Assembly: GCF_047607065.1 (NCBI RefSeq)
Contig: NZ_JASGDU010000054.1
Coordinates: 135 to 64,134, forward strand
Source: Aeromicrobium sp.
GTDB taxonomy: Bacteria; Actinomycetota; Actinomycetes; Propionibacteriales; Nocardioidaceae
Length of the DNA stretch: 64,000 nt
Direction of reading: 5' to 3'
The notes below the pieces were generated by a model. That model did no database searches. It saw only the letters and a list, made by a program, of their open reading frames with translations, and was not told the DNA's origin. Made by a program: the position numbers and the translations under genes. Below are positions 3,042 through 63,777 of this stretch, one piece after another; position 1 is the stretch's first letter, and every line of letters starts with the position of its first letter.

Positions 3042-3150
3042 CCGGTCCCTGAGGTGCGAGGCCGCTCGCGGCCGAGCCTCGAAGGGACTCAAACTGCAAC
3101 TCATTTCGCCCTTCGAGGCCGCTCCTTCGTCGCGGCACCTCAGGGGCCGG
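3042..3150. repeat. palindromic repeat family, inverted unit pair (cluster A)
   Basis: ccggtccctgaggtgcgag-gccgctcgcggcc-gagcctcgaagggac, then the inverted copy tcatttcgcccttcgaggccgctccttcgtcgcggcacctcaggggccgg. Confidence 0.85.
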
Positions 3151-3165
3151 ATTCTGCCGACCTGC

Positions 3166-3186
3166 GGAGTCCCCTATGGTCCGCAG
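3166..3186 (+). repeat. second, diverged direct copy of the tRNA-Ser 3' end
   Basis: ggagtcccctatggtccgcag versus ggagtcccctatcctccgcag at 2984-3004, 2 mismatches. The two copies bracket repeat cluster A. Confidence 0.6.
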
Positions 3187-3238
3187 ACCGAGAAGGGCAC
3201 CGAATCCCGTGGATCCGGTGCCCTTCAGGTGAGGAGGC

Positions 3239-4330
3239 TCAGCGCTCTTCTTCGCCGCGGATGAAGGCTTCGAGCTTGGCGCGACCGAGGTCGTCGGGGC
3301 GCTGCTCCGGCGGGGACTTCATCAGGTAGGACGAGGCGCTCAGCAGCGCGCCGCCGATGCCGCGGTCCTTGGCGATCTTCGCCGCACGGATCGCGTCGAT
3401 GATGATGCCGGCCGAGTTCGGCGAGTCCCAGACCTCGAGCTTGTACTCCAGGTTCAGGGGCACGTCGCCGAACGCGCGGCCCTCGAGGCGCACGTACGCC
3501 CACTTGCGGTCGTCGAGCCAGGCGACGTAGTCCGACGGGCCGATGTGAACATCCTTGTCGTGGACCTTGCCGGCCAGCGGGCCGGTGAGGTTCGACGTGA
3601 CGGCCTGCGTCTTGGAGACCTTCTTGGACTCCAGGCGCTCGCGCTCGAGCATGTTCTTGAAGTCCATGTTGCCGCCGACGTTGAGCTGGTAGGTGCGATC
3701 CAGCACCACGCCGCGGTCCTCGAACAGCTTGGCCATGACGCGGTGCGTGATGGTCGCGCCGACCTGGCTCTTGATGTCGTCGCCGATGATCGGCACGCCG
3801 GCTGCCTCGAACTTCGCCGCCCACTCCGGGTCCGACGCGATGAACACGGGCAGCGCGTTGACGAAGGCGACGCCTGCGTCGACGGCGCACTGCGCGTAGA
3901 ACTTGTCGGCGTCCTCCGAACCCACCGGCAGGTAGGACACGAGCACGTCGGCCTGGGTGTCCTTGAGTACCTGCACGACGTCGACGGGAGCGGCGTCGGA
4001 CTCCTCGATGGTCTCCAGGTAGTACTTGCCGAGGCCGTCGAGGGTGTGACCGCGCTGCACGGTCACACCGGTCGGCGGGACGTCGGTGATCTTGATGGTG
4101 TTGTTCTCGCTGCTGCGGATCGCATCGGCCAGGTCGAAGCCGACCTTCTTGGCATCGACGTCGAACGCCGCGACGAACTCCACGTCACTGACGTGATACT
4201 CGCCGAACTGGACGTGCATCAGGCCCGGCACGGTGCCGGCCGGGTCGGCGTTCTTGTAGTACTCGACGCCTTCGATGAGGGACGTGGCGCAGTTGCCCAC
4301 GCCCACAATTGCCACGCGTACCGAACCCAT
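3239..4330 (-). CDS. ino1: myo-inositol-1-phosphate synthase
   Basis: ORF 3239..4366. [25 protein letters not shown] and later NVGGNMDF and [13 protein letters not shown] are typical of actinobacterial Ino1. The ATG at 4330 is preceded by AAGGAG. Confidence 0.95.
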
Positions 4331-4362
4331 GGGTTCTCCTTTTGTAGTGCTCGTTCTCGGGG

Positions 4363-4962
4363 TCATGCTGATTGGCTGGTCGTATCGGAACCGTCGACGT
4401 CGTCGTCGACGGTCGTATACCCACCTGCACGCTCGCGGTCGATGAGCTCGGTCAACCAGGCGACCTCGCGCTCGACCGACTCCAGCCCGTGTCGCTGGAG
4501 TTCGCGCGTGTAGGAGTCCGCCCCACGCCGACCCCGAAGGGAAGCGTCGCGGACGTGCTCGAGTCGCTCCTGGAGCCGGCTGCGCCGGCCTTCGAGAATG
4601 CGGACCCGCGTCGGAGCGTCGGTCCGCGCGAAGAACGCGAATCGCACACCGAAGTTCTCGTCATCCCATGTCGCCGGGCCGGATTCCTCCATGACCTGCG
4701 CGAAGTACTCCTTGCCCTCGGCCGTCAGGCGGTAGGCGATCCGGTTGCGGCGGCCGCGGATGGCGGCACCGGGGTCGTCGTCGGCGACGATCAGCCCTTG
4801 GCGCACGAGGCTCTTCAGGCAGGGGTACAGCGTGCCGTAGGACAGCACCCGGCCCCAGCCGAGCAGCGCGATCAACTGCTTGCGCAACTCGTACCCGTGC
4901 ATGGGCGAGTCGTGCAGCAGTCCGAGGGTCGCGAGCTCCAGAGCCGCACCGCGCCGTGCCAT
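4363..4962 (-). CDS. PadR family transcriptional regulator
   Basis: The N-terminus [23 protein letters not shown]...[17 protein letters not shown] is a PadR winged helix. It sits upstream of ino1, as does the PadR-like gene next to ino1 in mycobacteria. Confidence 0.85.
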
Positions 4963-4981
4963 CGAAGAAAAACCTCAACCA

Positions 4982-5002
4982 GATATCAGGAGAATGGATA
5001 TA
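4982..5002. promoter_or_regulatory. candidate operator in the AT-rich padR/ponA1 divergent region
   Basis: GATATC-aggagaatg-GATATA lies in an unusually AT-rich stretch (4963-5050). No experimental or comparative support. Confidence 0.25.
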
Positions 5003-5161
5003 TCGGAACGATACATCGGTTCGTTGTCTCGAAACAAGTCTGGGTGCCACAACAACCCGATAGGTTTGGTGCCTGCATCACGAACAGGCACACTTGAGCA
5101 GATTGTCCGCGACCGGCCGGGTCCCTCTCGTCGGCCGAGATCACCAGAGGAGGTGCCCGCG

Positions 5162-7555: not shown

Positions 7556-7697
7556 CGCGCTCGCGGGCCGACCAGCGCAGACGCTTCGTACGCCGTGTGC
7601 CTCCGCGCTATAGCGCAAAGCCTCGTCCGAGGACGAAACATGGCTGACACGAAGGAGTCCTAGGGTGACCACGTGAACGAGCGAAGCGAGCGAAACG

Positions 7698-9301
<1,604 letters not shown>

Positions 9302-9302
<1 letters not shown>

Positions 9303-10228: not shown

Positions 10229-11088
10229 GCACCACCGACACGATGCAACTGCGCATCCGCCACACCACCGGTTACACCTACCCCGAGGGGGCCAGCGCCT
10301 CGCTCAACGAGGCCCGTATGACCCCGATGACCACCAGCGATCAGACGCTGCTGCGCTCGCGGCTGGAGATCTCGCCGAGTCCGTGGTCCTTCGAGTTCCG
10401 CGACTACTGGGGCACGACGGTCACCGCCTTCGAGGTGACCGAGGAGCACACGGACCTGCAGGTGGTCGCGACCTCGACGGTCGAGACGGTCGCGGGTAGC
10501 GAGGCGACGGCTGACCGGTCACGGGCGGCGTGGGAGGACCTGGCCGAGGTGGCCGACACCTGGTGCGAGTTCCTCATGCGTTCGACCTGGGTCGAGCCGC
10601 CGGACGACCTCGTTGCCGCCCTGGAGCCGATACGGCAGGCGGCCGCCCGGCCCGGCGATTACGTGCGCGCGGTCGGTGCGTTCCTCCACGAGCAGATCGC
10701 CTACCTGCCCGGCAGTACGACGGTCGACTCGACCGCAGCCGAGGCGTGGGCGGCGCGCGCGGGGGTCTGTCAGGACTTCGCACACCTCATGGTCGGTGCG
10801 CTGCGCTGGGCAGGCATCCCCGCGCGGTACGTCTCGGGCTACCTGCACCCCTCCCCCGATCCGCGTATCGGTGAGACGGTCAGTGGCGAGTCGCATGCGT
10901 GGATCGAGTGGTTCGACGGCGAGTGGACGGGTTGGGACCCGACCAATGCGGTCGCGCCGGCCGGGCGGCATGTCGTCGTCGCGCGGGGGCGGGACTACTC
11001 CGACAACCCGCCGCTGCGCGGCATCTACGCCACCACCGACACCTCAGCGTTGTTCGTCGTCTCCGTCGAGATCACCCGCCTGCGGTAG
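10225..11088 (+). CDS. transglutaminase-like cysteine peptidase (Bact_transglu_N + transglutaminase core)
   Basis: Cys-His-Asp triad context: GVCQDFAHLMVGALRWAGIPARYVSGYL, ESHAWIEWF, GWDPTN. GTGA overlap with the alpha-E gene. Confidence 0.85.
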   Translation: MSTTDTMQLRIRHTTGYTYPEGASASLNEARMTPMTTSDQTLLRSRLEISPSPWSFEFRDYWGTTVTAFEVTEEHTDLQVVATSTVETVAGSEATADRSRAAWEDLAEVADTWCEFLMRSTWVEPPDDLVAALEPIRQAAARPGDYVRAVGAFLHEQIAYLPGSTTVDSTAAEAWAARAGVCQDFAHLMVGALRWAGIPARYVSGYLHPSPDPRIGETVSGESHAWIEWFDGEWTGWDPTNAVAPAGRHVVVARGRDYSDNPPLRGIYATTDTSALFVVSVEITRLR

Positions 11089-11101
11089 GCAGCCACCACG
11101 G

Positions 11102-11142
11102 CCGGTGAGGTGCGACGAGGAACGAGAAGCCTCGAAACGACC
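11102..11142. repeat. palindromic repeat family, single 5'-shortened unit
   Basis: ccggtgaggtgcgacgaggaacgagaagcctcgaaacgacc. Compare 49967-50010, ccggtccctgaggtgcgacgaggaacgaggagcctcgaagggcg. It fills the 60-bp gap between convergent stops. Confidence 0.7.
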
Positions 11143-11148
11143 TCTCGC

Positions 11149-14232: not shown

Positions 14233-14249
14233 GAACCTCAGCCGGCGGG

Positions 14250-14376
14250 CTTAGAACGCGCGCGGATAGGCGGAACCCGGTCCCTGAGGTGCGAGCTTGC
14301 GAGCCTCGAAGGGACCTCACCGCGACGGGCTTCGCCCTTCGAGGCTCCTCGTTCCTCGTCGCTCCTCAGGACCCGG
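14250..14376. repeat. palindromic repeat family, left TIR + inverted unit pair (cluster B)
   Basis: cttagaacgcgcgcggataggcggaac-ccggtccctgaggtgcgagcttgcgagcctcgaagggacc-spacer-cttcgcccttcgaggctcctcgttcctcgtcgctcctcaggacccgg. Confidence 0.85.
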
Positions 14377-14403
14377 CTCGGCCGCGGGCCTACCCCCGCG
14401 TTG

Positions 14404-15996: not shown

Positions 15997-16170
15997 ACGC
16001 GTCCTCCCACCCGGTGCGGATCGACATTACGCCCGCACGGGTGCAGCGAGTTTTCCCCGGGCGCGCAGCACGGCTTGAGCGCACCTCGATGACCGGGGTC
16101 GCGCGGCGGCGGGACTCCGGGGTGCGGCGAACTACACTGGATCGCTCGCCCTGAACGCCCGAGGAGACCG

Positions 16171-18279: not shown

Positions 18280-19832
18280 ACCTTCCCGCCCCGTTGCGTC
18301 GGCTGGCGGCGCGCGCCCTGCCCCCGCTCCTGCTTGCGGCCGTCGTGGTCCCGGTCGGTGTCGCCGTGGCGAGGACCACCTTCGAGACCTCCGAGCGGCC
18401 GATCTCCATCGGTGCCCACCAGGCGACGCTGCGCCCGGACTACAGCGGCGACATCGTGCTCGACTTCGGGCCGCTGCTGCCCCAGGTGAAGATGGACTTG
18501 GACGATCCGCGCTTCGGTATCGGCGCGACCATCCAGTTGGGCGACGCCGAGGTCACCTCGCTCGACGAGCTGATTTCCCGCGACGCGGTAATCGCCTCGC
18601 AGCCCGACGGCGAGGTCGCGGCGGTGGAGGCGGCGCTGCGCGATATGTGGATCGCGTCGGCCTGGCGCGGCGCGGGCGTGGCCGTGGCGCTCGCCGTGGT
18701 GCTGAGTGTGGCGTGGATCGCCGTCGGCCGCGAGCGGCGCGCCGCCCTGGTGGAGGGTCGCAAGCCCCTTCGGATCACGGCGGCGGTCGTCGCCCTCGCC
18801 GTGGCCGGCGGGGGCGTCGTCGCGGCCGTGCGCTCGGACCCGTCGCGCGACCCCGATCCGGTCTCGTGGGTCACCCTCGCGGAGGCCTTCCCGGACCTGC
18901 CGCTGCCCGACGACTCGCGACTCGGCGCACTGCAGCTGTCCGACGGTGCCGCGCTGCGCAGCGGGGAGTCGCTGATCGAGGGCGCCCTCAACACCTACAC
19001 CGCCTCGAATGCCTTCTTCGACCAGCTTGCCACGACCGCCGAGGACGTCAAGGTGCGGCGTCCGGGCGAGGGCCAGACCGTCGCCCTGGTCGTCACCGAC
19101 CGGCACGACAACGTCGCGATGGACCCGGTCGCCCGGCAGATCGCCGAGAACGCTGATGCCACGATGCTGCTCGACCTCGGTGACGACACCTCCAACGGTG
19201 CCGCGTGGGAGGAGTTCAGCATCAACTCCCTCGCGCGCGAGTTCACCGGCTTCGACATCGTCGCGGTCGCGGGCAACCACGACCAGGGCGCGCACATTGC
19301 CGACTACATGGCCGACAGCGGCTTCACCCTGCTCAAGGGCGAGCCGGTGACCGTCGACGGCATCCGGTTCATCGGTGACAGCGATCCGCGTTCCTCCGGT
19401 CTGACGAAGGGCTACACCGGCAACGAGGACGACAACATCGCCGCGATCAGCGAACAGGATCAGGAACTGACGGAGACCGCCTGCGACGACGGTGAAGTGG
19501 CGGTGGCGCTCGTTCACAGCATCGCGTCGGCCAAGCAGTTGGCCGAGTCCGGCTGCGTCGACCTGATCCTGTCGGGGCACCTGCACCGCCAGGTCGGCCC
19601 TGACGTGGTCCGCAGCGATGATGACGAGCCGACGGTGACGCTGGCGACCGGCAGTACCGGCGGCGCGGTGTATGCGTTCGCGCTGGGCACCGGGCTGCGG
19701 CGCGAGGCGCAGATGACGCTCGTGACCTTCGCCGACGGTCGTCCGGTGGGCCTGCAGCTGGTGGACATCGACACCGGGGGGCATATCGCCGCGCAGCCGT
19801 ACGTCACCCTCGACGACCTCATCGGCGACTGA
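18276..19832 (+). CDS. membrane-associated calcineurin-like metallophosphoesterase
   Basis: Track ORF 17667..19832 is over-extended. The ATG at 18276 overlaps the helD stop (ATGA) and gives MNLPAPLRRLAARALPPLLLAAVVV. Motifs: VTDRHDN, LGDDTSNG, VAGNHD, SGHLH. Confidence 0.75.
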   Translation: MNLPAPLRRLAARALPPLLLAAVVVPVGVAVARTTFETSERPISIGAHQATLRPDYSGDIVLDFGPLLPQVKMDLDDPRFGIGATIQLGDAEVTSLDELISRDAVIASQPDGEVAAVEAALRDMWIASAWRGAGVAVALAVVLSVAWIAVGRERRAALVEGRKPLRITAAVVALAVAGGGVVAAVRSDPSRDPDPVSWVTLAEAFPDLPLPDDSRLGALQLSDGAALRSGESLIEGALNTYTASNAFFDQLATTAEDVKVRRPGEGQTVALVVTDRHDNVAMDPVARQIAENADATMLLDLGDDTSNGAAWEEFSINSLAREFTGFDIVAVAGNHDQGAHIADYMADSGFTLLKGEPVTVDGIRFIGDSDPRSSGLTKGYTGNEDDNIAAISEQDQELTETACDDGEVAVALVHSIASAKQLAESGCVDLILSGHLHRQVGPDVVRSDDDEPTVTLATGSTGGAVYAFALGTGLRREAQMTLVTFADGRPVGLQLVDIDTGGHIAAQPYVTLDDLIGD

Positions 19833-19850
19833 GCGCCGGGCGGGGGCAAC

Positions 19851-20045
19851 CGGGTCCCTCAGGTGCGAGCGAGGAACGAAGGGACGTGGGCGGGTCATTT
19901 CGAGGCTCGGCCGCGAACGGCCTCGCACCTCAACGACCGGCTCCGTACGTCGGTCCCTGAGGTGCGAGCGAGGAACGAGCGAGCCTCGAAGGGACCTACC
20001 TCGCACCTCAACGACCGGGAGCCGCCGGGTCCCCGAGGTGCGGGC
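19851..20045. repeat. palindromic repeat family, array of about 3 full + 2 half units (cluster C)
   Basis: cgggtccctcaggtgcgag..gaagggac; gggtcatttcgaggctcggccgcgaacggcctcgcacctcaacgaccgg; cggtccctgaggtgcgagcgaggaacgagcgagcctcgaagggacc; ctcgcacctcaacgaccgg; ccgggtccccgaggtgcggg. Confidence 0.85.
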
Positions 20046-22094: not shown

Positions 22095-22102
22095 GACCAT
22101 CG

Positions 22103-22159
22103 CCGGTCCCTGAGGTGGGGGTCATTTCGAGGCTCGCAAGCTCGCACCTCAATGACCGG
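22103..22159. repeat. palindromic repeat family, truncated unit + full inverted unit (cluster D)
   Basis: ccggtccctgaggtg / ggggtcatttcgaggctcgcaagctcgcacctcaatgaccgg. Confidence 0.85.
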
Positions 22160-22176
22160 CTCGGCCTCGCACCGGC

Positions 22177-26316: not shown

Positions 26317-26380
26317 GGAGCGCGGGCTTGCGGCGCTACACTCGGGCCGTCAGACAGGGGAGCGCCGGGTCCACCGCAGA

Positions 26381-26459
26381 CGGACAGGGGCGCTGAGAGT
26401 GCGGGTGAAGCCGCAGACCCTCCGAACCTGCTCCGGTTAGTACCGGCGAAGGGAGTCCA
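26381..26459 (+). promoter_or_regulatory. TPP (THI-box) riboswitch
   Basis: ggacAGGGGCGCTGAGAGtgcgggtgaagccgcagACCCTccgAACCTGctCCGGttAGTACCGGCGaAGGGAgtcc matches the THI-box signature (CUGAGA, ACCC, AACCUG, CCGG..AUACCGGCG, AGGGA). The 3' strand of P1 (gtcc) and the AGGGAG Shine-Dalgarno end 2-6 nt before the ATG at 26461. Confidence 0.8.
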
Positions 26460-26460
26460 C

Positions 26461-27066
26461 ATGAGTTCTGCATCCCTGCGCGATCTCCTGCGCTACCGCA
26501 CCATCGACCTGGTGACCATCGCGACCCTAGGCGTCGCGTTCGGCGTCGTCTTCTGGGGGTGGGGCAAGCTGTACGCCCTGTTCGACATCGCCGCCAAGCT
26601 CGGCTTCCCGCCGGCGGCGGCTCTCATGGGCGGCGGTTGGCTGATCGCCGGCGTGGTCGGCGGACTTGTGGTTCGCAAGCCCGGTGCCGCGCTGGTGACC
26701 GAGCTGATCGCTGCCTGCGTCTCGGCGTTCATGCCGGGCAACGAGTGGGGCAGCTCGGTCCTGGTGTCCGGCTTGCTGGAGGGTCTCGGTGCCGAGCTGG
26801 TGCTGGCGGTCTTCGCCTACCGGCTGTTCGGGCCTGCCGTCGCTATGGCCGCCGGGGCGCTTGCGGGGGTCTTCGAGGCCGTTTACGAGTGGGGGTCCTG
26901 GTACGCGGACTGGGATTTCGACTACCGCCTGGCCCACCTCGTGCTGTTCGTCGTCTCCGGGGCGCTGATCGCCGGGGTCGGCGGCTGGTTGCTGGTGCGC
27001 GCGCTGGCCAGGGCGGGTGCGCTCGACGCCTTCCCGGCCGGGCGTGAGGCCGTCACCACCGTCTAG
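26461..27066 (+). CDS. ykoE: YkoE-family HMP/thiamine substrate-capture membrane component
   Basis: 201-aa protein with 5-6 TM segments, directly behind the TPP riboswitch and ahead of a duplicated ABC ATPase. This is the classical ykoEDC arrangement. Confidence 0.7.
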   Translation: MSSASLRDLLRYRTIDLVTIATLGVAFGVVFWGWGKLYALFDIAAKLGFPPAAALMGGGWLIAGVVGGLVVRKPGAALVTELIAACVSAFMPGNEWGSSVLVSGLLEGLGAELVLAVFAYRLFGPAVAMAAGALAGVFEAVYEWGSWYADWDFDYRLAHLVLFVVSGALIAGVGGWLLVRALARAGALDAFPAGREAVTTV

Positions 27067-29165: not shown

Positions 29166-29300
29166 CTTAGAACATGTGCGGATAGGCGCTGGCTGAGGTG
29201 CGAGCGAGGAACGAGCGAGCCTCGAAGCCTGCCACGGCTGGGTCATTTCGAGGCTCGCAAGCTCGCACCTCAATGACCGGCTCCGCCTATCTGCGGAATC
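29166..29300. repeat. palindromic repeat family, full-length composite with terminal inverted repeats (cluster E)
   Basis: Left end GCGGATAGGCG (29178-29188), right end CGCCTATCTGC (29284-29294), 1 mismatch. Inside: ctggctgaggtgcgagcgaggaacgagcgagcctcgaagcc, a spacer, then ggtcatttcgaggctcgcaagctcgcacctcaatgaccgg. Confidence 0.85.
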
Positions 29301-29325
29301 TCATAGTCACCGTGGAAGGAATCCC

Positions 29326-29784
29326 ATGCCCCGCGTCTTCTCCAGCCTCGACGATTTCAAGGCCGCCGCCGGCACCGAACTCGGCACCAGCGACTGGATC
29401 ACCGTCACCCAGGAACAGATCAACACCTTCGCCGACGCCACCGGCGATCACCAGTGGATCCACGTCGACCCCGAGGCCGCCGCGAAGGGTCCCTTCGGCA
29501 CCACCATCGCCCACGGCTACCTCACCTTGAGCCTGTTGCCGGTCTTCGCCGAGCAGATCTACGAGGTGCAGGGCCTGGCGATGGGCGTCAACTACGGTGC
29601 CAACAAGGTCCGCTTCCCCAACCCCGTGCCGGTCGGCTCCCGCCTGCGCGCCACCGCCACGCTCAAGGAGACCGCCGACATCGCCATCGGCACGCAGGCC
29701 ACCATCTCCTTCGTGGTCGAGCGCGAGGGTGCCGACAAGCCTGCCGTCGTCGCCGAGGTCGTCTACGTGATGGCGAGCGCCTGA
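29326..29784 (+). CDS. MaoC-like (R)-specific enoyl-CoA hydratase, hot-dog fold
   Basis: FADATGDHQWIHVDPEAAAKGPFGTTIAHGYL is the MaoC dehydratase motif. Confidence 0.85.
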   Translation: MPRVFSSLDDFKAAAGTELGTSDWITVTQEQINTFADATGDHQWIHVDPEAAAKGPFGTTIAHGYLTLSLLPVFAEQIYEVQGLAMGVNYGANKVRFPNPVPVGSRLRATATLKETADIAIGTQATISFVVEREGADKPAVVAEVVYVMASA

Positions 29785-31018: not shown

Positions 31019-31032
31019 TCCCAGTCGTCACC

Positions 31033-31202
31033 GCGGTCCCTGAGGTGCACCCTTCGAGGCCGCTCGTTCCTCGCGGTACCTCAGGACCCGCGCAAGCACA
31101 CTGGTCCCTGAGGTGCGAGCTTGCGAGCCTCTAAGGGACCTACCACGGCGGGCTTCGTGGCTGAAAGCTCGCACCTCAATGACCGGTTCCGCCTATCTGC
31201 GG
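31033..31202. repeat. palindromic repeat family, two unit pairs + right TIR (cluster F)
   Basis: gcggtccctgaggtgcacccttcgaggccgctcgttcctcgcggtacctcaggaccc; ctggtccctgaggtgcgagcttgcgagcctctaagggacc; ...aaagctcgcacctcaatgaccggttCCGCCTATCTGCGG. Confidence 0.85.
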
Positions 31203-31221
31203 AGACCTCTAGGGTGTCGGC

Positions 31222-31587
31222 ATGGGTCGAGAGTCCAAGCGTGTCGTCGGCATGTGGCTGGCCGCTGTCGTCGTGACGGTCTCGTGGGCGATCTGGCTGG
31301 TCGACGGCTGGTCGTCCGACACCGTCACGGCAGCCCGGTTGGCGGTGATCGCCGCTGCGGTCGTCAGTGCAGTGATCGCCTATCAGACCTTCACGGTCGC
31401 GTCCTCGCGCGATCCCCTTCTCATCTCCTCGATGGCGGTCTCGTTGGTCGGCGGGGCCGCGCTGGTGTCGATGACGATGAACGCGCCGGCCGGGCAACTG
31501 CTCCCCCACGGCCCCTACGCGGTTGTGGGCGTGGTCGCCCTGATCTATGCCGCCGCAGCGATGACGTTCGCCGCGCGCCGCACCTGA
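31222..31587 (+). CDS. hypothetical small membrane protein (about 4 TM)
   Basis: 121-aa hydrophobic ORF (WLAAVVVTVSWAIWLV..., AVIAAAVVSAVIAY...). No recognisable motif. Confidence 0.45.
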   Translation: MGRESKRVVGMWLAAVVVTVSWAIWLVDGWSSDTVTAARLAVIAAAVVSAVIAYQTFTVASSRDPLLISSMAVSLVGGAALVSMTMNAPAGQLLPHGPYAVVGVVALIYAAAAMTFAARRT

Positions 31588-33183: not shown

Positions 33184-33395
33184 GTGCCGAAGATAGGTCC
33201 GCTGGCTGAGGTGCGCCCTTCGAGGCCGCTCGTTCCTCGCGGTACCTCAGGACCCGCGAGGAACGAGCGAGCCGGGTCCTGAGGTGCGAGGAGCGGTCCC
33301 TGAGGTGTGAGGCCGCTCGCGGCCGAGCCTCGAAGGGTGAAGCCTGCCGTAGGTGGATCATTTCGAGGCTCGCAAGCTCGCACCTCAGGGACCGG
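33184..33395. repeat. palindromic repeat family, array of about 3 full + 3 partial units (cluster G)
   Basis: Degenerate left end gtgccgaagataggtccgctggctgaggtgcg. Then cccttcgaggccgctcgttcctcgcggtacctcaggaccc; gggtcctgaggtgcgaggagc; ggtccctgaggtgtgaggccgctcgcggccgagcctcgaagggtg; ggatcatttcgaggctcgcaagctcgcacctcagggaccgg. Confidence 0.85.
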
Positions 33396-33404
33396 CGGGT
33401 GGCC

Positions 33405-37725: not shown

Positions 37726-37746
37726 CGGGCCGGTCTGACAGCCGGT

Positions 37747-37782
37747 GAGGGGTTGTGGTCGCCACGGCGGCCACAACCCCTC
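37747..37782. terminator. hairpin between convergent fadB and SDR genes
   Basis: GAGGGGTTGTGG (37747-37758) pairs with CCACAACCCCTC (37771-37782), a 12-bp perfect stem. No clear U tract. Confidence 0.5.
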
Positions 37783-37816
37783 ATTGCCGTTCGGGGGAAC
37801 CGATGCTTCCTGACAC

Positions 37817-42875: not shown

Positions 42876-42980
42876 AACGTGCGCAGATACGTCCCGCTGG
42901 ATGAGTCGCGTAGGCCGCAAGCGGTCGAAGCCCCGAATCCTGCATCGGCGGGTCATTTCGAGGCTCGCTGTGCTCGCACG
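42876..42980. repeat. palindromic repeat family, degenerate copy (cluster H)
   Basis: aacgtgcgcagatacg (compare aacgtgcgcggatagg), cgtaggccgcaagcggtcgaagcc, gggtcatttcgaggctcgctgtgctcgcacgg. Confidence 0.45.
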
Positions 42981-44272: not shown

Positions 44273-44339
44273 CCGGTCGTTGAGGCGCGCCCTTCGAGGC
44301 AGGGACCGGACTCCCCGCGCCCGAGCCTCGAAGGGCGAA
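44273..44339. repeat. palindromic repeat family, diverged units (cluster I)
   Basis: ccggtcgttgaggcgcgcccttcgaggcagggaccgg ... cccgagcctcgaagggcgaa. Confidence 0.6.
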
Positions 44340-44342
44340 AGG

Positions 44343-45988: not shown

Positions 45989-47169
45989 GTCCCCGCGCCC
46001 GCACGGCACCGGACGCCCGCCGCGCCCGCACCCGGCCCCGGGTGGTGGCCCGCGACGTGCGCGGCACGCTCGATGTCGATGCGCTGATCGCCGACAGGTC
46101 CGTCGAGATCGTCGTGTGCTGCGGATCGGGCGGGGTCGGCAAGACGACGACCTCGGCCGCGCTGGCCATGCGGGCCGCCGACGCCGGCCGCCGCGTGTGT
46201 GTCCTGACCATCGACCCGGCACGGCGGCTCGCGCAGTCGATGGGGCTGACCGAGCTGGACAACACGCCCCGCTCGGTCGCCGGCGCGGGCGCGAACGGCG
46301 GCTCGCTCGACGCGATGATGCTCGACATGAAGCGCACCTTCGACGAGGTGGTCGAGGCGCACGCGAGCGCGGAGAAGGCGCGGCAGATCCTCGCCAACCC
46401 GTTCTACCAGGCGCTGTCCAGTTCCTTTGCGGGCACGCAGGAGTACATGGCGATGGAGAAGCTGGGGCAGTTGCACGCGAGCGGTGCCTGGGACCTCATC
46501 GTCGTGGACACCCCACCGTCGCGCTCGGCGCTGGACTTCCTCGACGCGCCCGAGCGGCTGTCGTCGATGCTGGACGGGCGTTTCATCAAGCTGCTGCTCG
46601 CCCCGGCGAAGGGTCCGGCTCGCCTGCTCAGCGCGGGGTTCGGCCTGGTCACCGGGGCGATCAACAAGATCCTCGGTGCCCAGGTCCTCAGCGACGTGCA
46701 GACCTTCGTGGCGGCCTTCGACACGCTGTTCGGCGGTTTCCGGCAGCGCGCCGAGGCCACGTATGCGCTGCTCAAGGCGCCGGGGACGGCGTTCGTGGTG
46801 GTGGCCTCGCCCGAGCCGGCGGCGGTGCGCGAGGCGTCCTATTTCGTCGAACGACTCGCCGGCGATCAGATGCCGCTGGCCGGGCTGGTCGTCAACCGGG
46901 TTCACGACGACGTCGCCGATCAGATCGATCTGGCGGCGGCGCAGGCGGCCATCGCCCGGCTCGCCGAGGGTGACGCGCTGCAGCGGCAGGTGGCCGAGCT
47001 GCTGGCCGTCCATGCCGAGCGTCTGGCTCTGGCTGGTCGGGAGCGGCGCGAGCGGGAGAGTTTCGCCCGGTCGCATCCGGGGGTGGCGCAGGTGCCGGTC
47101 ACCGCGCTGTCGAGTGACGTCCACGACCTCGACGGCCTGCGCCGCGTCGGCGACCTCCTCGCCCGCTGA
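45985..47169 (+). CDS. ArsA/Get3-like P-loop ATPase (second paralogue)
   Basis: IVVCCGSGGVGKTTTSAALAM, IVVDTPPS. ATGA overlap with the preceding paralogue. Same pairing and neighbours as mycobacterial Rv3679/Rv3680. Confidence 0.8.
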   Translation: MSPRARTAPDARRARTRPRVVARDVRGTLDVDALIADRSVEIVVCCGSGGVGKTTTSAALAMRAADAGRRVCVLTIDPARRLAQSMGLTELDNTPRSVAGAGANGGSLDAMMLDMKRTFDEVVEAHASAEKARQILANPFYQALSSSFAGTQEYMAMEKLGQLHASGAWDLIVVDTPPSRSALDFLDAPERLSSMLDGRFIKLLLAPAKGPARLLSAGFGLVTGAINKILGAQVLSDVQTFVAAFDTLFGGFRQRAEATYALLKAPGTAFVVVASPEPAAVREASYFVERLAGDQMPLAGLVVNRVHDDVADQIDLAAAQAAIARLAEGDALQRQVAELLAVHAERLALAGRERRERESFARSHPGVAQVPVTALSSDVHDLDGLRRVGDLLAR

Positions 47170-47236: not shown

Positions 47237-47494
47237 TCAGGCGGGCTGGAGGACGCGACGCCACTGGGTCACGTGCGGGCGACGGCGCAGCAGCGCGCGG
47301 CGCTCTCGCTCGGTCATTCCGCCCCAGACGCCCCATTCGATCCGGTTGTCGAGTGCCTCGGCCAGGCATTCGGCGGCCACCGGACAGTGCGTGCAGACGA
47401 CCTTGGCACGGTTCTGCTCAGCGCCCTGGACGAATAACTCCTCGGTTCGCCCACGGCAGGCCGCATGGGCGGCCCAGTTCTCGTTCCACGTCAT
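47237..47494 (-). CDS. whiB4: WhiB-family Fe-S redox-sensing transcription factor, WhiB4-like
   Basis: ACRGRTEELFVQGAEQNRAKVVCTHCPVAAECLAEALDNRIEWGVWGGMTERERRALL has four Cys and GVWGG. It closely parallels M. tuberculosis WhiB4 as I recall it. Synteny with ponA2 also fits. Confidence 0.9.
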   Translation of the reverse strand: MTWNENWAAHAACRGRTEELFVQGAEQNRAKVVCTHCPVAAECLAEALDNRIEWGVWGGMTERERRALLRRRPHVTQWRRVLQPA

Positions 47495-49904: not shown

Positions 49905-49910
49905 GCACCC

Positions 49911-50084
49911 GGTGCCTGAGCCTCGAAGGGACCCACCTCAGCCAGCGGACCTCCCCGCGCGCCAGGCCGGTCCCTGAGGTGCGACGAGGAACGAGGAGCC
50001 TCGAAGGGCGAAGCCTGCGGTGGTGGTCATTTCGAGGCTCGCAAGCTCGCACCTCAACGACCGGCTCCGCCTATCTGCGGAATC
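49911..50084. repeat. palindromic repeat family, several units + right TIR (cluster K)
   Basis: gagcctcgaagggacccacctcagccagcggacc; ccggtccctgaggtgcgacgaggaacgaggagcctcgaagggcg; ggtcatttcgaggctcgcaagctcgcacctcaacgaccggctCCGCCTATCTGCGGaatc. Confidence 0.85.
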
Positions 50085-51634: not shown

Positions 51635-51650
51635 CGTTGCCCTCAGGGGC

Positions 51651-51690
51651 GCGAAGACTCCCGGATCACACGCGATCCGGGAGTCTTCGC
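51651..51690 (+). terminator. hairpin after tRNA-Pro
   Basis: GCGAAGACTCCCGGATC (51651-51667) pairs with GATCCGGGAGTCTTCGC (51674-51690), a 17-bp perfect stem. GTTGTTG follows. Confidence 0.6.
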
Positions 51691-51786
51691 GTTGTTGCGC
51701 AGGTCCGCTCGCCTGATGCGCCGTCGCAGATGTCGGCTCCGGCCGGTAGACTTCGGCTACGACCCGATCCTCGACGGAAGGCGGCG

Positions 51787-53265: not shown

Positions 53266-53274
53266 GAGGATCTC

Positions 53275-53400
53275 TGCCCCTGAGGTGCGAGGAGCTTGCG
53301 GCCTCGAAGGGCGAAGGGATCCCCTCGAAGGCCGAAGGGACCCAGACAGCGGGCCGTTGTTGGGGTCCGTTCGAGGCTCCTTCGTCGCACCTCAGGGACC
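53275..53400. repeat. palindromic repeat family, inverted unit pair (cluster L)
   Basis: gcccctgaggtgcgaggagcttgcggcctcgaagggcgaagggatcccctcgaaggccgaagggaccc ... ggggtccgttcgaggctccttcgtcgcacctcagggacc. Confidence 0.8.
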
Positions 53401-53414
53401 GCGGCGGAACGCTC

Positions 53415-57225: not shown

Positions 57226-57536
57226 CGGGTGCCGCACCGCGAAGGTCAGGGGGCATCCTTCCCACCGGGATTCATGCGGGTTACCTAGTGAGGCCGAGAC
57301 GCGGGCTTCAGGTCCGCCGATATCGCGTTTTGTCGCCGTAGAGTTGACCCATGGCACGCCGATCCTTGTACATGACGCTGTTGCAGCGCCATCTGTCCGA
57401 AGGCGAGCCGTGGACCGAGGCCTCCGAGCACGCGCTCAGTGGCGTGGCGCACGCCTACGACCTCATCAAGCAGGCCGTGATCGGTCCGCCGGCCCTCCGC
57501 CCAGGCCGGCGGTCCTCCTCCGCCGACCAGTGACGT

Positions 57537-58688: not shown

Positions 58689-58771
58689 GAGAACCCCTTC
58701 GTTCATCCTTGGTCCGACCCTAGGGCGGCCGTCTCGGGCGGCGACGCAGTGGTCATCGCCTAGAGTTCTCG

Positions 58772-59956
58772 GTGATGCTCTCCCCCTTGTTCGTGCGGAT
58801 CGCGCTCGCACTCGCCATCGTGGTGCTGACCGCGTTCTTTGTGGGCGGCGCGCCGGGGGGGGGTGCCGGTCCGGTGCCGCCGGCCAGCGCCTCCACCGCG
58901 AGGAACCCGGCGGCACCGGCTGAGCCGGCGTCGGTCGTCATCGGCGCATCGGGCGAGATTTTGCCCCATGCGCCGGTGATCCGTAGCGCTCACCAGCTCG
59001 CGGGCAATCGCTCGGGTGCCTACGACTTCGCGCCGCTGTTCGCGGAGGTCGCGCCGTTGTTGAGCGCGCCGCAGCTGTCGCTGTGTCATTTGGAGGCACC
59101 GATCAGCGATGATCCGCTCGATATCGACCGGCCGGCGGGCATGGTGTTCAACAGTCCGCCGCAATTGGCCGCAGCGCTGGCCGGAGCCGGGTTCGACGGC
59201 TGCGAGTTCGCGTCGAATCACACCCTGGATCAGGGCATGAGCGGCCTGCGGGACACGCAGGCGGTCGTGGAAGGTGCTGGGATGACCTATGCCGGGCCGT
59301 CGGCCGACGCGGCACGATCCGGGCAGCCGGCGATGCTGCGGGCCGGTGACCTGACCATTGCGCATCTGGCTTATAGCTACACAGCCTTCAACGACAGTAC
59401 CGAACCCAATGCGCGGGTGCCCGAGGCGGCTCCGTGGCTGTCCGGGACGCTGTGGGCCGCAGTCGGGGCCGCCGGCATTGCCGGCGATGCCGAGCGGGCG
59501 CGCGAGGCCGGGGCCGATCTGGTCGTGGTGAGCCTGCATTGGGGCGTCGAGTACCAGGCCGAGCCCACCGGGGATCAGCGTGAGGTCGCTCGCGAACTGC
59601 TGGAGGCCGGTGCCGTCGATCTGATCCTGGGCACGCACGCCCACGTGGTACAGCCGTGCGAGAAGATCAACGACCGCTATGTGCTGTACGGGATGGGCAA
59701 CTTCCTCTCGAATCAGTCGCCGAGTGCGGGCCTGCCGGTGCCGACACAGGACGGGATGATCGCGCAGGTGACGCTGGCGCTCGATGCGGACGGCGCTCTG
59801 ACCTCGTCGCTGGCCGTGCAGCCGGCGCAGGTACAGATTCCCGGGCATCGGATCCAGTTGGCGACGCCGCAGCGGAATGCCGCCAGCTACCAGCGGACGA
59901 TGGACACCCTCGGCTCGCTCGGCACCTGCGACGTCACTTCCCTCGCCGCCGCCTGA
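58772..59956 (+). CDS. capA: CapA-family (PGA_cap) metallophosphatase-fold protein
   Basis: N-terminal TM. Motifs ASNHTLDQG, VSLHWGVEYQ, ILGTHAHVVQP, YGMGNFLSNQ. Confidence 0.8.
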   Translation: MMLSPLFVRIALALAIVVLTAFFVGGAPGGGAGPVPPASASTARNPAAPAEPASVVIGASGEILPHAPVIRSAHQLAGNRSGAYDFAPLFAEVAPLLSAPQLSLCHLEAPISDDPLDIDRPAGMVFNSPPQLAAALAGAGFDGCEFASNHTLDQGMSGLRDTQAVVEGAGMTYAGPSADAARSGQPAMLRAGDLTIAHLAYSYTAFNDSTEPNARVPEAAPWLSGTLWAAVGAAGIAGDAERAREAGADLVVVSLHWGVEYQAEPTGDQREVARELLEAGAVDLILGTHAHVVQPCEKINDRYVLYGMGNFLSNQSPSAGLPVPTQDGMIAQVTLALDADGALTSSLAVQPAQVQIPGHRIQLATPQRNAASYQRTMDTLGSLGTCDVTSLAAA

Positions 59957-60112
59957 GTGCGCCCTTCGAGGCCGCTCGTTCCTCGCGGCACCTCAGGACC
60001 CGCTTGCGAGCCTCGAAGGGCGAAGGGACCCGCCGACGCTGGTGGCTTCGCGGCTCGGCCGCAAGCGGCCTCACACCTCAGCCACCGGAGGAGGGTCGCC
60101 GGTCCCTGAGGT
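59957..60112. repeat. palindromic repeat family, several units (cluster M)
   Basis: gtgcgcccttcgaggccgctcgttcctcgcggcacctcaggaccc; cttgcgagcctcgaagggcgaagggaccc; cttcgcggctcggccgcaagcggcctcacacctcagcc; ccggtccctgaggt. It starts at the base after the capA stop. Confidence 0.85.
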
Positions 60113-60142
60113 TGCCAGGGGATCGGTGGCCCGCTGCGGGCC

Positions 60143-60937: not shown

Positions 60938-61554
60938 CGGGGGTCCTTGTCTAGTTCGTGGTCGAGGGTGATGGCCCAGGCGTCGAGGATCATGGCGCGT
61001 CGGGCGCTGTCGTCGCTGAGCGAGGCCGCCAGGGCCAGGCCGCGCGTCAGATCGAGGGTCGCCTGCACGAGCTGGCGATTGCGCCCCCGGCTCTCGTCGA
61101 TGTCCAGCAGGGACACGGTGTAGCGGTGCGCGTCGCGGCCGAAACGCCGTTCCAGGGGGGCGACGGCTTCGCGCAGCACGGGGTCGGTGCGCGCCGCGAC
61201 CCACAGTTCGAGCGCAGCGAAGAAGACCGGCGAGACGTACAGGTCGGCGATGAGGTTGAGCGCGGCACGGGTGCGGCCCCGTTCCGGAGGCAGCCGCGCG
61301 GCCGAAGCCGCGATCTCGGTGTGCCGCCGCTCGGACAGATGGTCGAGAGCGGCCATGACGAGGTCGGACTTGGTGGGGAAATGGTGCAACTGCGCCCCGC
61401 GGCTGACGCCGGCCCGTTTGCTGACGACGGTCGTGGTGGTGCCGGTCCACCCATACTCGACGAGGCATTCGACGGTGGCCTCCATCAGCCGCTGGCGCAT
61501 GGCTCGGGTGCGCTCTTCCTGCGGCACGCGCGCGGGCGGGATCGGGGTCGACAC
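60934..61554 (-). CDS. TetR/AcrR family transcriptional regulator
   Basis: RQRLMEATVECLVEYGWTGTTTTVVSKRAGVSRGAQLHHFPTKSDLV is the TetR HTH. Confidence 0.85.
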   Translation of the reverse strand: MSTPIPPARVPQEERTRAMRQRLMEATVECLVEYGWTGTTTTVVSKRAGVSRGAQLHHFPTKSDLVMAALDHLSERRHTEIAASAARLPPERGRTRAALNLIADLYVSPVFFAALELWVAARTDPVLREAVAPLERRFGRDAHRYTVSLLDIDESRGRNRQLVQATLDLTRGLALAASLSDDSARRAMILDAWAITLDHELDKDPR

Positions 61555-61647
61555 GCCTCCAGCATGGAGACAGCCGAAGAAACAGTCAAGGCTGCCGGTT
61601 TCTCGGTCGGCGAGTCCGGGGCAATGCGGTTATTCTGCGAGTACTTG

Positions 61648-61665
61648 CCGCAACACCGGTTGCGG
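61648..61665. promoter_or_regulatory. candidate TetR operator
   Basis: CCGCAAC-accg-GTTGCGG perfect 7-bp inverted repeat in the tetR / 61696 divergent region. Speculative. Confidence 0.25.
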
Positions 61666-61695
61666 TCACCGAATCACTGACGTGGGGATAAAACG

Positions 61696-63456
61696 ATGAG
61701 CGAATCGCTGCCACCGCCTCCTGGCCCGTCCGGCATGCTGCCGCCACCGCCGGTCGACACCGCGCCCGCCGCAGGCGGCGCTGCGGCGGCCGGTGGAGGC
61801 GGGGGTGCAGCCCTGAAGATCGGTGCCGGGGTCGTCGGCCTGGCTCTCGTCGGCGGAGGGGCTTTCGGCGCGAAGGTCCTGTGGGACAACACCCTCGGCG
61901 GCGGCGGTCCGCAGCCGGCTGACGCGCTGCCCGCGAGCACCGTGGCCTACGCGCGGATCGACCTCGACCCCTCGGCCAGCCAGAAGGTTGCACTGCTGGA
62001 CCTCATCGACCGGGTGCCCGAGGTCAAGGAGGAGTTCGGTCTGGAAGACGTCGACTCCCAGGCCGACCTGCGTGAGGTCGCTTTCACCGACTGGTTCGAC
62101 ATCGAGGGTTCCTGCGACGTCGACTACGACGCCGACGTCAAGCCGTGGATCGGCGAGCGGGCCGGCATCGCGCTGATCGGCGACTTCGAGATCAGCGACG
62201 ACGAGCAGGACACCGCGCAGTCCGTCGCGGAGAACACCGCCCTGGTCATTCAGGTGACCGACGAGGACAAGGCGCGCGAAGGCATCACCAAGCTGGCGAC
62301 CGAGTGCGGGGTCATGGACGACCTCGCCGACGGTCTCGACCTCGACAACGAGGAGCCGGGCATTGTCTTCCGGGACGGCTTCGCCGTGGTCGCGGTGAGC
62401 CAGGAGGCCGCCGACGCCATCGACCAGGCCACGTCCGACAAGGGCACCCTGGCCAGCAACGACCGGTTCTCGGCCGACATGGACGCCCTCGGCGAGGACG
62501 GCATCTTCTCGGCCTGGTACGACGAGCGCACGCTCATGGGCAAGGTCGACGAAGCGCTCGACGAGTTCGGCGACGATGTGCCCGATGATGTCCACGACAT
62601 GGTTCAGGCCTACTCGAAGGTCGAGTCGGCGGCGTTCACCATCCGCGCGAGCGAGGAGTCGCTGGAGGCTGCGGGCGTAACGACGCTTGAGGACGGCTTC
62701 GAGACGCCCGATGCCGACAGCCTCGCGGGCCTGCCGGCCGACACCCTGGTCGGCGTGTCCATCGTGGGCGGCGGTCAGTGGATCGAGGAGGGCTGGGATT
62801 CCTTCGCGCCGATGGCCGAGCTGTACCTGCTGGACTCGTATGCCTGCCCGTACTACGACGACTACGAGTACGGTTACGACTACACCTGCGAACCGCCGTC
62901 GTTCGACGACATGGTCGACGACTTCGAGAGCGAGACCGGCCTGAAGGTGCCCGACGACCTGGCGACGCTGCTGGGCACGGAGTTCAACCTCTACGTCGGT
63001 TCCGAGGGCGTGGAGGACCTCAAGAACGCCGATGATGAGGCCGAGGCGCTGGAGACCCTCAACGCGGGAATCGAGATCACCTCCGACGGTGATGTGGCGG
63101 GTGTGTTGGAAGACCTCATGGACTTCGCCGGGGCCGACCTGGACATCACCGAGACTGACGGCGGTGCCATCATCGCCACGAACGACGATGCCGCCGAGAC
63201 GCTGGAGAGTGACGACGGCCTGGGTGAGTCCGAGACGTTCTCCTCGGTTATCAGCCAGCAGGACAACCCGATGGGCGGTGTCTACGTTGACATCGCGGGT
63301 GTGATCGACGCGCTCAAGTCCTTCGACGCCATTGACACCGGTGATGCCGACGACCTGGCATTCCTCAAGGCCTTCGGTCTGACGACGTGGCAGGAGAGCG
63401 ACAACGTCATCGGATTCAGTGCGAAACTGAGCTTCAACCCCGCCGACAGCGAGTAG
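61696..63456 (+). CDS. hypothetical membrane-anchored, highly acidic extracytoplasmic protein (DUF3352-like)
   Basis: Pro/Gly/Ala-rich N-terminus, one TM (IGAGVVGLALVGGGAF), then a 500-aa Asp/Glu-rich domain. The family assignment is from memory only. Confidence 0.5.
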   Translation: MSESLPPPPGPSGMLPPPPVDTAPAAGGAAAAGGGGGAALKIGAGVVGLALVGGGAFGAKVLWDNTLGGGGPQPADALPASTVAYARIDLDPSASQKVALLDLIDRVPEVKEEFGLEDVDSQADLREVAFTDWFDIEGSCDVDYDADVKPWIGERAGIALIGDFEISDDEQDTAQSVAENTALVIQVTDEDKAREGITKLATECGVMDDLADGLDLDNEEPGIVFRDGFAVVAVSQEAADAIDQATSDKGTLASNDRFSADMDALGEDGIFSAWYDERTLMGKVDEALDEFGDDVPDDVHDMVQAYSKVESAAFTIRASEESLEAAGVTTLEDGFETPDADSLAGLPADTLVGVSIVGGGQWIEEGWDSFAPMAELYLLDSYACPYYDDYEYGYDYTCEPPSFDDMVDDFESETGLKVPDDLATLLGTEFNLYVGSEGVEDLKNADDEAEALETLNAGIEITSDGDVAGVLEDLMDFAGADLDITETDGGAIIATNDDAAETLESDDGLGESETFSSVISQQDNPMGGVYVDIAGVIDALKSFDAIDTGDADDLAFLKAFGLTTWQESDNVIGFSAKLSFNPADSE

Positions 63457-63470
63457 GAGTAGGCCCACCC

Positions 63471-63566
63471 GGTCCCTGAGGTGCTGCGACGAAGGAGCAG
63501 CCTCGAAGGGACTTGCCACGGCAGGCTTCGAGGCTCGGCCGCAGGCGGCCTCACACCTCAGCCAGC
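63471..63566. repeat. palindromic repeat family, inverted unit pair (cluster N1)
   Basis: ggtccctgaggtgctgcgacgaaggagcagcctcgaagggac-ttgccacggcagg-cttcgaggctcggccgcaggcggcctcacacctcagccagc. Confidence 0.85.
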
Positions 63567-63588
63567 GGGCTTCGTAGGCCGAACGCGA

Positions 63589-63624
63589 CAGGGGCCGCCG
63601 GGAAGTATTTCCCGGCGGCCCCTG
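63589..63624. terminator. 16-bp perfect hairpin between two repeat elements
   Basis: CAGGGGCCGCCGGGAA (63589-63604), loop gtat, TTCCCGGCGGCCCCTG (63609-63624). No U tract on either strand. Confidence 0.55.
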
Positions 63625-63641
63625 CCGTTCGTCGCGGCCCT

Positions 63642-63777
63642 CAGAACGTGCGCGGATAGGCGGAATCCGGTCATCGAGGTGCGAGCTTGCGAGCCTCGAA
63701 ATGACCTACCACCGCAGGCTTCGAGGCTCCGGCCGCAAGCGGCCTACGCACCTCAGCCAGCGCCTATCCGCGCATCC
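63642..63777. repeat. palindromic repeat family, best-preserved full-length composite (cluster N2)
   Basis: Perfect 13-bp TIR: GCGCGGATAGGCG (63650-63662) and CGCCTATCCGCGC (63761-63773). It encloses ggtcatcgaggtgcgagcttgcgagcctcgaaatgacc, the spacer taccaccgcagg, then cttcgaggctccggccgcaagcggcctacgcacctcagccag. Confidence 0.9.

Follow-up and report, generated by a model that had tools for sequence, protein, structure and literature searches.

A REP-like palindromic repeat family at gene 3′ ends of an Aeromicrobium genome and its association with a small GIY-YIG nuclease gene

We analyzed a 64,000-nucleotide stretch of the genome of Aeromicrobium sp. (assembly GCF_047607065.1, contig NZ_JASGDU010000054.1, here C54, positions 135–64134; hereafter the window) that harbors a family of short palindromic repeats concentrated where genes end. 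The unit is a selfish palindromic repeat of the REP/REPIN (repetitive extragenic palindromic) kind, and it occupies 11 of the 13 convergent, stop-to-stop junctions of the window and none of the 13 divergent ones. In other carriers the same unit forms inverted arms around the gene of a small GIY-YIG nuclease. On balance, we consider the bias best explained by gene-less copies of this GIY-YIG cassette, which would persist at 3′ ends, where they are least harmful.

Gene-end bias in the window and across the genome

The bias was proposed in a sequence-only reading of the window, which counted 13 convergent and 13 divergent junctions. The same numbers were recovered with our own gene caller, combining codon log-odds with dynamic programming, and the minus-strand gene at every convergent junction has Pfam support. 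This includes an Abhydrolase_3 gene (stop at 63780) at a position where the caller had put an over-extended plus-strand open reading frame (ORF), and which was recovered by ORF and Pfam evidence. Units were located with a covariance model (CM), R1, trained on 27 window units and run over the window without filters; these 27 strong units (37–68 bits) therefore match by construction. Ten convergent junctions hold strong units and one more a decayed dimer at 42893–42980, congruent with the eleven unit-bearing junctions of the earlier reading. That reading had added a twelfth, the fadB/SDR junction, with a palindrome thought to be made of element ends, yet the structure at 37746–37783 is an ordinary hairpin without a CM match, leaving 11/13 rather than 12/13. 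The remaining convergent junction, 57226–57536 in a lower-GC islet, is indeed empty; a 55-codon ORF with fair codon statistics lies within it (57366–57533), ending 4 nt from the stop of an alcohol dehydrogenase gene.

The 13 divergent spacers, ~2 kb in all, contain no unit and no R1 match above 9.3 bits. The only trace of the family there is the match that had been reported as half-site-like, at 16081–16098, and it truly is a solo half-site. The chance that all 11 occupied junctions among the 26 are convergent is 78/7,726,160, ~1e-5. Four co-directional spacers are occupied as well (19850, 29166, 31032 and 44284), as had been described.

The genome was then covered with a profile HMM built from 446 strict units (nhmmer, E<=1e-5). 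The assembly consists of 63 contigs totaling 2.18 Mb (69% G+C) and is estimated to be 96% complete; same-genus genomes measure 3–3.9 Mb. Depending on the stringency, the genome holds 446–457 strict units or 530–685 nhmmer matches, many of them with 98–100% identical cores, and the 530 matches at E<=1e-5 are almost wholly extragenic, distributed as follows.

Convergent: 126 of 302 junctions occupied (42%); 186 units in 42.9 kb of spacer, 4.3 units/kb
Divergent: 19 of 311 junctions occupied (6%); 28 units in 59.4 kb of spacer, 0.47 units/kb
Co-directional: 158 of 1396 junctions occupied (11%); 239 units in 123 kb of spacer, 1.9 units/kb
Other locations: 18 units inside called genes; 59 at contig ends

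The difference between convergent and divergent junctions corresponds to an odds ratio of ~11 (chi-square ~108), confirming the gene-end bias at the scale of the genome. It is less absolute there than in the window, and is diluted by caller errors and by junctions broken at contig ends; the accumulation of units at contig ends shows that the repeats break the assembly. Regarding orientation relative to the upstream gene, the dimers are symmetric and the few single units in co-directional spacers disagree with each other.

A bias produced by gene calling or counting, with convergent spacers being long merely through holding repeats, is highly improbable. One gene at the window edge was mis-called, and element DNA does lengthen convergent spacers, but Pfam supports all 13 convergent junctions, counts made per junction still give 42% versus 6%, and the ~2 kb of divergent spacer in the window is devoid of units. 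A Gordonia locus with public gene calls moreover displays the same unit placement.

Sequence and structure of the repeat unit

Direct and inverted repeat searches combined with inspection define a unit of ~49 nt, CCGGTCCCT-GAGGTGCGA-(variable, 9–17 nt)-CCTCGAA-GGGACC, the most frequent middles being GCTTGCGAG, GGAGCTTGCGACGAG, GCGAGGAACGAGCGAG and GGCCGCCTGCGGCCGAG. In the consensus hairpin derived from the alignment of the 27 window units, GAGGU pairs with GCCUC, followed by a GA bulge and then an outer stem. The outer stem exists in three compensating versions, GGTCCC/GGGACC, GGTCAT/ATGACC and GGTGGC/GCCACC, and thus covaries, with three pairs altered on both sides. Typically, two units form an inverted dimer with the CCTCGAA ends (B-ends) inward, 1–43 nt apart, an arrangement found nine times in the window. 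Some 30 of the genomic copies possess a further inverted repeat, GCGGATAGGCG, on the outside.

Rfam holds no family matching the unit, and a dimer query returned nothing at E<=1; the matches in the window are restricted to tRNA, signal recognition particle (SRP) RNA and a thiamine pyrophosphate (TPP) riboswitch. A hammerhead-like reading of CUGAGG...CGAAGGG was rejected, as the core positions misfit and Rfam finds nothing, and so was, by eye, a kink-turn in the conserved interior (UGCGA / CGAG), which misfits the canonical 3-nt bulge and tandem G-A pairs. Analogously, an autonomous element bounded by the 13-bp outer ends was discarded, considering that none of the 31 copies of GCGGATAGGCG form an inverted pair 0.7–2.5 kb apart.

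Beyond the 27 strong units, R1 yields matches at 49908–49936 (22 bits), 44284–44310 (21 bits) and 42893–42946 (14.5 bits). All others score at most ~12.6 bits and are either partial units within known clusters (22102, 31032, 19850) or at noise level. The sites in the window are listed below.

3041–3151: inverted dimer, 3041–3092 (plus) and 3103–3151 (minus); convergent, tRNA-Ser (plus) and inositol-1-phosphate synthase gene (3239–4330, minus; Pfam PF01658); CM 59.8 and 52.5 bits
11097–11145 (plus): single unit; convergent, filling the 60-nt gap between the stops at 11088 (plus) and 11149 (minus, adenylate cyclase/HAMP gene); CM 55.6 bits
14250–14377: dimer, 14276–14319 (plus) and 14329–14377 (minus), with outer left end CTTAGAAC..GCGGATAGGCG; convergent; CM 59.8 and 59.1 bits; fold −64/−66 kcal/mol, z −3.6
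16081–16098 (minus): solo A-box half-site GCGCACCTCGATGACCGG, seen in the sequence, CM at noise there; divergent spacer
19850–20019: cluster of two full units, 19890–19941 (minus) and 19949–19999 (plus), and two partial units, by CM; co-directional, 17 nt past the stop at 19832 and 167 nt ahead of trpE-G; flanking genes by Pfam
22102–22160: partial A-box (plus) fused to a full unit, 22117–22160 (minus); convergent, trpE-G and HtrA-like protease gene (Pfam); CM 58.2 bits
29166–29305: composite, outer inverted ends GCGGATAGGCG / CGCCTATCTGC around a dimer, 29185–29235 (plus) and 29238–29281 (minus); co-directional, MaoC start at 29326 (Pfam MaoC); CM 57.7 and 56.1 bits
31032–31211: cluster of three units, 31044–31092 (minus), 31100–31143 (plus) and 31145–31187 (minus), with a partial A-box and a right outer end, by CM; 13 nt past the stop of an acyl-CoA dehydrogenase gene
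33198–33396: cluster of three units, 33210–33258 (minus), 33292–33343 (plus) and 33353–33396 (minus); convergent, ending 8 nt from the stop of a MerR gene (Pfam MerR); CM 51–57 bits
37746–37783: ordinary 18-bp hairpin, not a family member; fadB/SDR convergent junction; from the inverted repeat search, with weak likeness to unit ends
42893–42980: decayed dimer; convergent junction 42874/42994; CM 14.5 bits only, by eye GGGTCATTTCGAGGCTCGC..GCTCGCAC and CGCTGGATGAGTCGCGTAGGCCGCAAGCGGTCGAAGCC
44284–44341: partial unit; co-directional, between two minus-strand genes (DUF3558-like and MFS, Pfam); CM 20.9 bits
47176–47225 (plus): single unit; convergent, arsA-like stop at 47169 and whiB stop at 47237 (Pfam Whib); CM 61.7 bits
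49908–50089: partial unit, dimer 49966–50014 (plus) and 50022–50065 (minus), and right outer end; convergent, class A PBP gene and yqeY; CM 68 and 57.5 bits; fold −60 kcal/mol, z −4 to −4.7
53272–53403: dimer, units 43 nt apart; convergent, with 6 nt to one stop and 11 nt to the other (Pfam LytR_C); CM 41.4 and 51.4 bits
59956–60089 (minus): two minus-strand units; convergent, the first beginning on the last base of the capA stop (Pfam PGA_cap, MDMPI_N); CM 54.2 and 54.9 bits
63468–63773: two dimers, 63468–63569 and 63666–63764, by CM; convergent with the Abhydrolase_3 gene (ORF and Pfam); fold −73/−82 kcal/mol, z −6

At most gene ends the gap from the stop to the first unit is 0–20 nt, in line with the sequence-only reading. 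In the case of the capA-like gene, the TGA (59954–59956) lies inside a CTGAG A-box remnant, and thus the repeat supplies the stop codon. The second dimer of the 63468–63773 site is enclosed by outer inverted ends of 13 bp that match perfectly, and the stretch between the two dimers contains a 19-bp hairpin (63586–63627) that bears no relation to the unit. The ORF downstream of the 31032 cluster, 31222–31587, has no Pfam match, and the junction, counted here as co-directional, is accordingly of uncertain type.

A GIY-YIG nuclease gene bracketed by inverted units

A search with PF01541 recovered a small stand-alone GIY-YIG gene, encoding ~97 aa, in the genome of the window and in other unit carriers, the proteins being 68–70% identical across orders. 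The window's genome has one intact copy, on the minus strand of a second contig (C62, 55325–55540; locus L146, 1426–1716). In Agrococcus, R1 places three plus-strand units before the gene and three minus-strand units after it, and units are also present on both sides of the gene in Aeromicrobium, Janibacter and Gordonia lacunae.

R1 was also run on a metagenome sample of 80 loci (L151–L230), chosen solely because they encode a GIY-YIG relative. It matched 44 times, in 16 of the 80 loci, with 42 of the 44 matches within ~340 nt of the GIY-YIG gene. The polarity is consistent, the nearest upstream unit being on the plus strand in 11 of 12 loci and the nearest downstream unit on the minus strand in 13–14 of 16. 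Two of these cassettes are compact, with a plus-strand unit, ~50 nt, the ORF, and a minus-strand unit overlapping or just past the stop, ~450 bp in total. The cassette units are thus inverted with the CCTCGAA ends toward the gene, the same polarity as in all nine window dimers.

A second clade of GIY-YIG genes is seen in Gordonia sp. B7-2 (L142, 1101–2067), where the gene lies between a different inverted repeat, both arms of which translate to ...HRVSIRGGLAGSLVATQPAVG..., and the different flanking repeat suggests clade-specific repeat partners. The metagenome loci lacking an R1 unit may carry other cognate repeats, as L142 does.

Literature searches found nothing linking GIY-YIG or UPF0213/YhbQ-type proteins to REP-like repeats, and nothing relevant was retrieved with the sequence strings of the unit. 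Likewise, NCBIfam has no name for the ~97-aa GIY-YIG protein.

Distribution across genomes and phyla

Sixteen of 18 same-genus genomes are without any copy of the unit and two carry the family. At the arsA-like/whiB junction, the gap amounts to 1–21 nt and is unit-free in three relatives (G005, G007 and G016), as compared to 67 nt with a unit here; the empty sites of the relatives have diverged (73% identity). The flanks of one unit site in G007 are not syntenic in the window's genome.

Beyond the genus, searching a species-level genome collection for an exact 24-base pattern of the unit yields more than 114 stretches that contain it. Carriers include Gordonia, Janibacter, Tessaracoccus, Agrococcus, Aeromicrobium and Marmoricola, many Alphaproteobacteria, and metagenome-assembled genomes (MAGs) of Chloroflexia, Eremiobacterota and Peregrinibacteria. 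The core, CCCTGAGGTGCGAG...GAGCCTCGAAGGG, is near-invariant from Actinobacteria of three orders to many Alphaproteobacteria and the MAGs of the three latter groups. Conservation extends to bases outside the 24-base pattern, with covariation of the outer stem, which reads CGTCACCC...GGGTGACG in Alphaproteobacteria; the head of the unit is CGTCACCC in these copies versus CCGGTCCC in the window's genome.

The copy number found by R1 ranges from 70 to at least 150 in each of six actinobacterial genomes of three orders, with Gordonia, Aeromicrobium, Tessaracoccus, Janibacter and Agrococcus as high-copy genera. Taklimakanibacter has 52 copies, and 15 are present in a Peregrinibacteria genome of 1.1 Mb. 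A sample of 400 genomes of the phylum gave none, with 15 candidates per genome scored. Being high-copy in species scattered over several phyla, the family bears the signature of something mobile.

The enzyme of REPIN-RAYT systems, the REP-associated tyrosine transposase (RAYT; a Y1 HUH transposase, PF01797), has no match in the window's genome, 96% complete, while control genomes matched. PF01797 is also unmatched in nine of 11 other unit-bearing genomes, including all eight actinobacterial ones.

Hairpin stability and transcript ends

The inverted dimers and the composite fold to −60 to −82 kcal/mol on both strands (z −3.6 to −6.6). The folding of single units does not surpass that of shuffled sequence. 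As stated in the earlier reading, canonical terminators are scarce: over 60 kb, U-tailed terminator-like hairpins number 15 versus 15.7 in shuffles, and none is at a gene end. A T-run is absent after every window unit, so that the stem followed by a U-tract that characterizes an intrinsic terminator is not formed. The dimers would give both converging transcripts a very stable hairpin, one that probably blocks 3′ exonucleases or terminates transcription in part, as a by-product of its presence. The scarcity of canonical terminators makes these repeats a good system for studying whether transcripts end at, or are protected by, hairpins without U-tails in high-GC Actinobacteria.

One may ask whether the units are instead kept for such a function, terminating transcription bidirectionally without a U-tail, blocking 3′ exonucleases or insulating converging transcripts from each other, with the bias reflecting positive selection. 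The stability of the dimers on both strands, the position of units 0–20 nt from stops where they fill convergent gaps, the chance-level number of U-tailed terminators and the 19850 cluster, located between an operon end and a trp leader, are in keeping with this notion. REPs of Escherichia coli, according to work cited in PMC5082802, stabilize mRNA and can terminate transcription. We nonetheless regard a retained function as rather unlikely. The single units fold like shuffles, most same-genus genomes manage without the family, relatives make do with 1–21 nt at the arsA-like/whiB junction, and about half of the convergent junctions in the genome are empty. In addition, 20 nt separate the end of the composite at 29166–29305 from the start codon of MaoC, which has a GGAAGGA Shine-Dalgarno sequence ahead of it. 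A transcript must consequently cross the composite or begin inside it, placing the composite in a 5′ leader or inside an operon, where it is transcribed through.

The sequence-only reading had offered two causes, selection against insertion in promoters, or a role as terminators, 3′ stabilizers or insulators. Both are compatible with the data and they are inseparable on present evidence; the stable dimers and the lack of U-tailed enrichment favor the second, while an obligatory terminator role is disfavored, and the interpretation is hence only partly supported. That reading also overlooked that the bias is textbook for REP-type repeats, and that the units form the arms of a cassette with a GIY-YIG nuclease gene.

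Origin of the bias

In the explanation we favor, the window dimers would be gene-less copies of the cassette arms, resembling miniature inverted-repeat transposable elements (MITEs), and the single units would represent half copies. We infer that mobility of the units is driven by the GIY-YIG nuclease, and that selection is the main cause of the bias: DNA past a stop codon would be safe for a copy, a convergent spacer would be safe from both sides, and copies would persist there, with those in promoters and 5′ leaders being purged. Sites that are prone to hairpin formation, or occupied already, may in addition be preferred by the nuclease, which would strengthen the bias.

Taken further, such a preference could by itself account for the distribution, if the spreading enzyme targets DNA that forms hairpins, is occupied or lies at transcription ends, thereby directing insertion to 3′ ends. 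Units are indeed nested or adjacent in the clusters at 19850–20019, 31032–31211, 33198–33396 and 63468–63773, fusions of a truncated A-box with a full unit occur at 22102, 31032, 33198 and 59952, and one of the metagenome cassettes sits 10 nt after a stop codon. Relatives of GIY-YIG proteins also include structure-specific nucleases. However, no target motif or target-site duplication is definable, and the empty junctions of the relatives share no hairpin, leading us to consider directed insertion unlikely as the principal cause.

Several observations weigh against gene-less cassette copies persisting through tolerance. The occupancy of 11 out of 13 convergent junctions in the window is above what simple tolerance suggests, and, given the lack of enrichment in U-tailed terminators, the host might rely on the hairpins. 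In the window's own genome, the GIY-YIG gene has units on its 3′ flank alone: four are located at its stop, the 5′ divergent spacer of 95 nt is unit-free, and the occupied site is itself a convergent junction. Across genomes, the pairing is imperfect: 64 of the 80 metagenome loci lack an R1 unit, G007 has at least 40 units without a clear small GIY-YIG gene, and another genome (G010) has the gene without units. No target-site duplication is evident at 29166–29305 or 63640–63775, and no high-identity pair of empty and filled sites was found. Finally, the genome-wide counts depend on our own caller, which erred at least once at the window edge, and the 59 units (E<=1e-5) at contig ends fall outside the junction counts.

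Relation to known repeat systems

REPs are located, in the main, between ORFs that converge or run in one direction and no more than 20 bp from a 3′ end; head-to-head dimers prevail among them, and some provide the stop codon, as does the TAG of GTAG REPs (Di Nocera 2013, PMC3733652). The bias reported here is that published distribution of REPs and bacterial interspersed mosaic elements (BIMEs), and is thus not new in itself; taken alone it is ordinary, showing that an actinobacterial REP-type family behaves like Proteobacterial ones. Indeed, the family shares with REP/BIME and with GTAG and CGTC REPs the short imperfect palindromes, the hundreds of mostly extragenic copies, and the dimers and clusters. 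With REP/BIME it also shares a placement in which convergent spacers exceed co-directional and far exceed divergent ones, within ~20 bp of stops and with the occasional stop codon supplied.

The CGTC REPs have been reported without a dedicated transposase (Di Nocera 2013, PMC3733652), and Alphaproteobacterial copies of the present unit start with CGTC. The four described CGTC families have 8–9-bp stems and 4–5-nt loops (PMC3733652). Compared by description, the unit here differs from GTAG and CGTC REPs in being ~49 nt long with a bulged stem and an interior of 9–17 nt or longer, in having the head GGTC in the window's genome, and in the extra outer inverted repeat of ~30 copies. Br-REP1 and Br-REP2 of Bradyrhizobium were also considered and have sequences different from the unit.

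Another parallel is the REPIN-RAYT system, or REPtrons (Nunvar 2010; Bertels and Rainey 2011, PMC3116915). Both systems have inverted doublets that form a long hairpin, an enzyme gene present in a single copy with the system's own repeats on its flanks, and an imperfect co-occurrence of enzyme and repeat across genomes. In contrast, PF01797 is missing here and the flanked gene encodes a ~97-aa GIY-YIG nuclease, and the unit family is patchy and crosses phyla, whereas REPINs are described as vertically inherited. Similarly to MITEs, the gene-less copies keep the inverted ends of a longer gene-bearing element, and the composite has 13-bp terminal inverted repeats. The product of the putative parent is however a nuclease and neither a DDE transposase nor another known transposase, single arms are common, and no target-site duplication was found.

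The Correia/NEMIS and ERIC elements are likewise palindromic repeats co-transcribed with neighbors, with hairpins that affect the mRNA 3′ end. These are unrelated in sequence, measure 100–150 bp, generate TA duplications, often lie upstream of genes and supply promoters. Intrinsic terminators, in turn, resemble the units as GC-rich hairpins just past stops that are bidirectional in convergent spacers, but the units lack a U-tract and constitute a dispersed family of conserved sequence that is absent from close relatives.

What is new is the combination of a near-invariant core across phyla, the absence of RAYT and the inverted arms around a GIY-YIG gene. It is conceivable, though we put it forward tentatively, that the cross-phylum unit and the bracketed GIY-YIG nuclease together form a replicator analogous to REPIN-RAYT, run by a nuclease of another superfamily. 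If true, the enzyme that has long been missing for RAYT-less (CGTC-type) REPs would thereby be named, and the gene-end bias would follow from how the GIY-YIG nuclease chooses or creates sites. Which enzyme, if any, lies behind RAYT-less REPs has been in question since at least 2013, and with a 97-residue candidate named and its DNA partner defined, the question becomes testable at the bench.

Other features of the window

Among the window genes identified by Pfam are those for inositol-1-phosphate synthase, a mycothiol-type MDMPI protein, a GlfT2-like galactofuranosyltransferase, DUF3558 and WhiB, a gene content pointing to the Mycobacteriales. The SRP RNA is found at 2649–2745, in the first divergent spacer, and the TPP riboswitch at 26346–26471, ahead of ECF/ABC transporter genes. 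Directly after two tRNA genes there are perfect hairpins of 22 bp (2893–2943) and 18 bp (51650–51691), unrelated to the repeat family.

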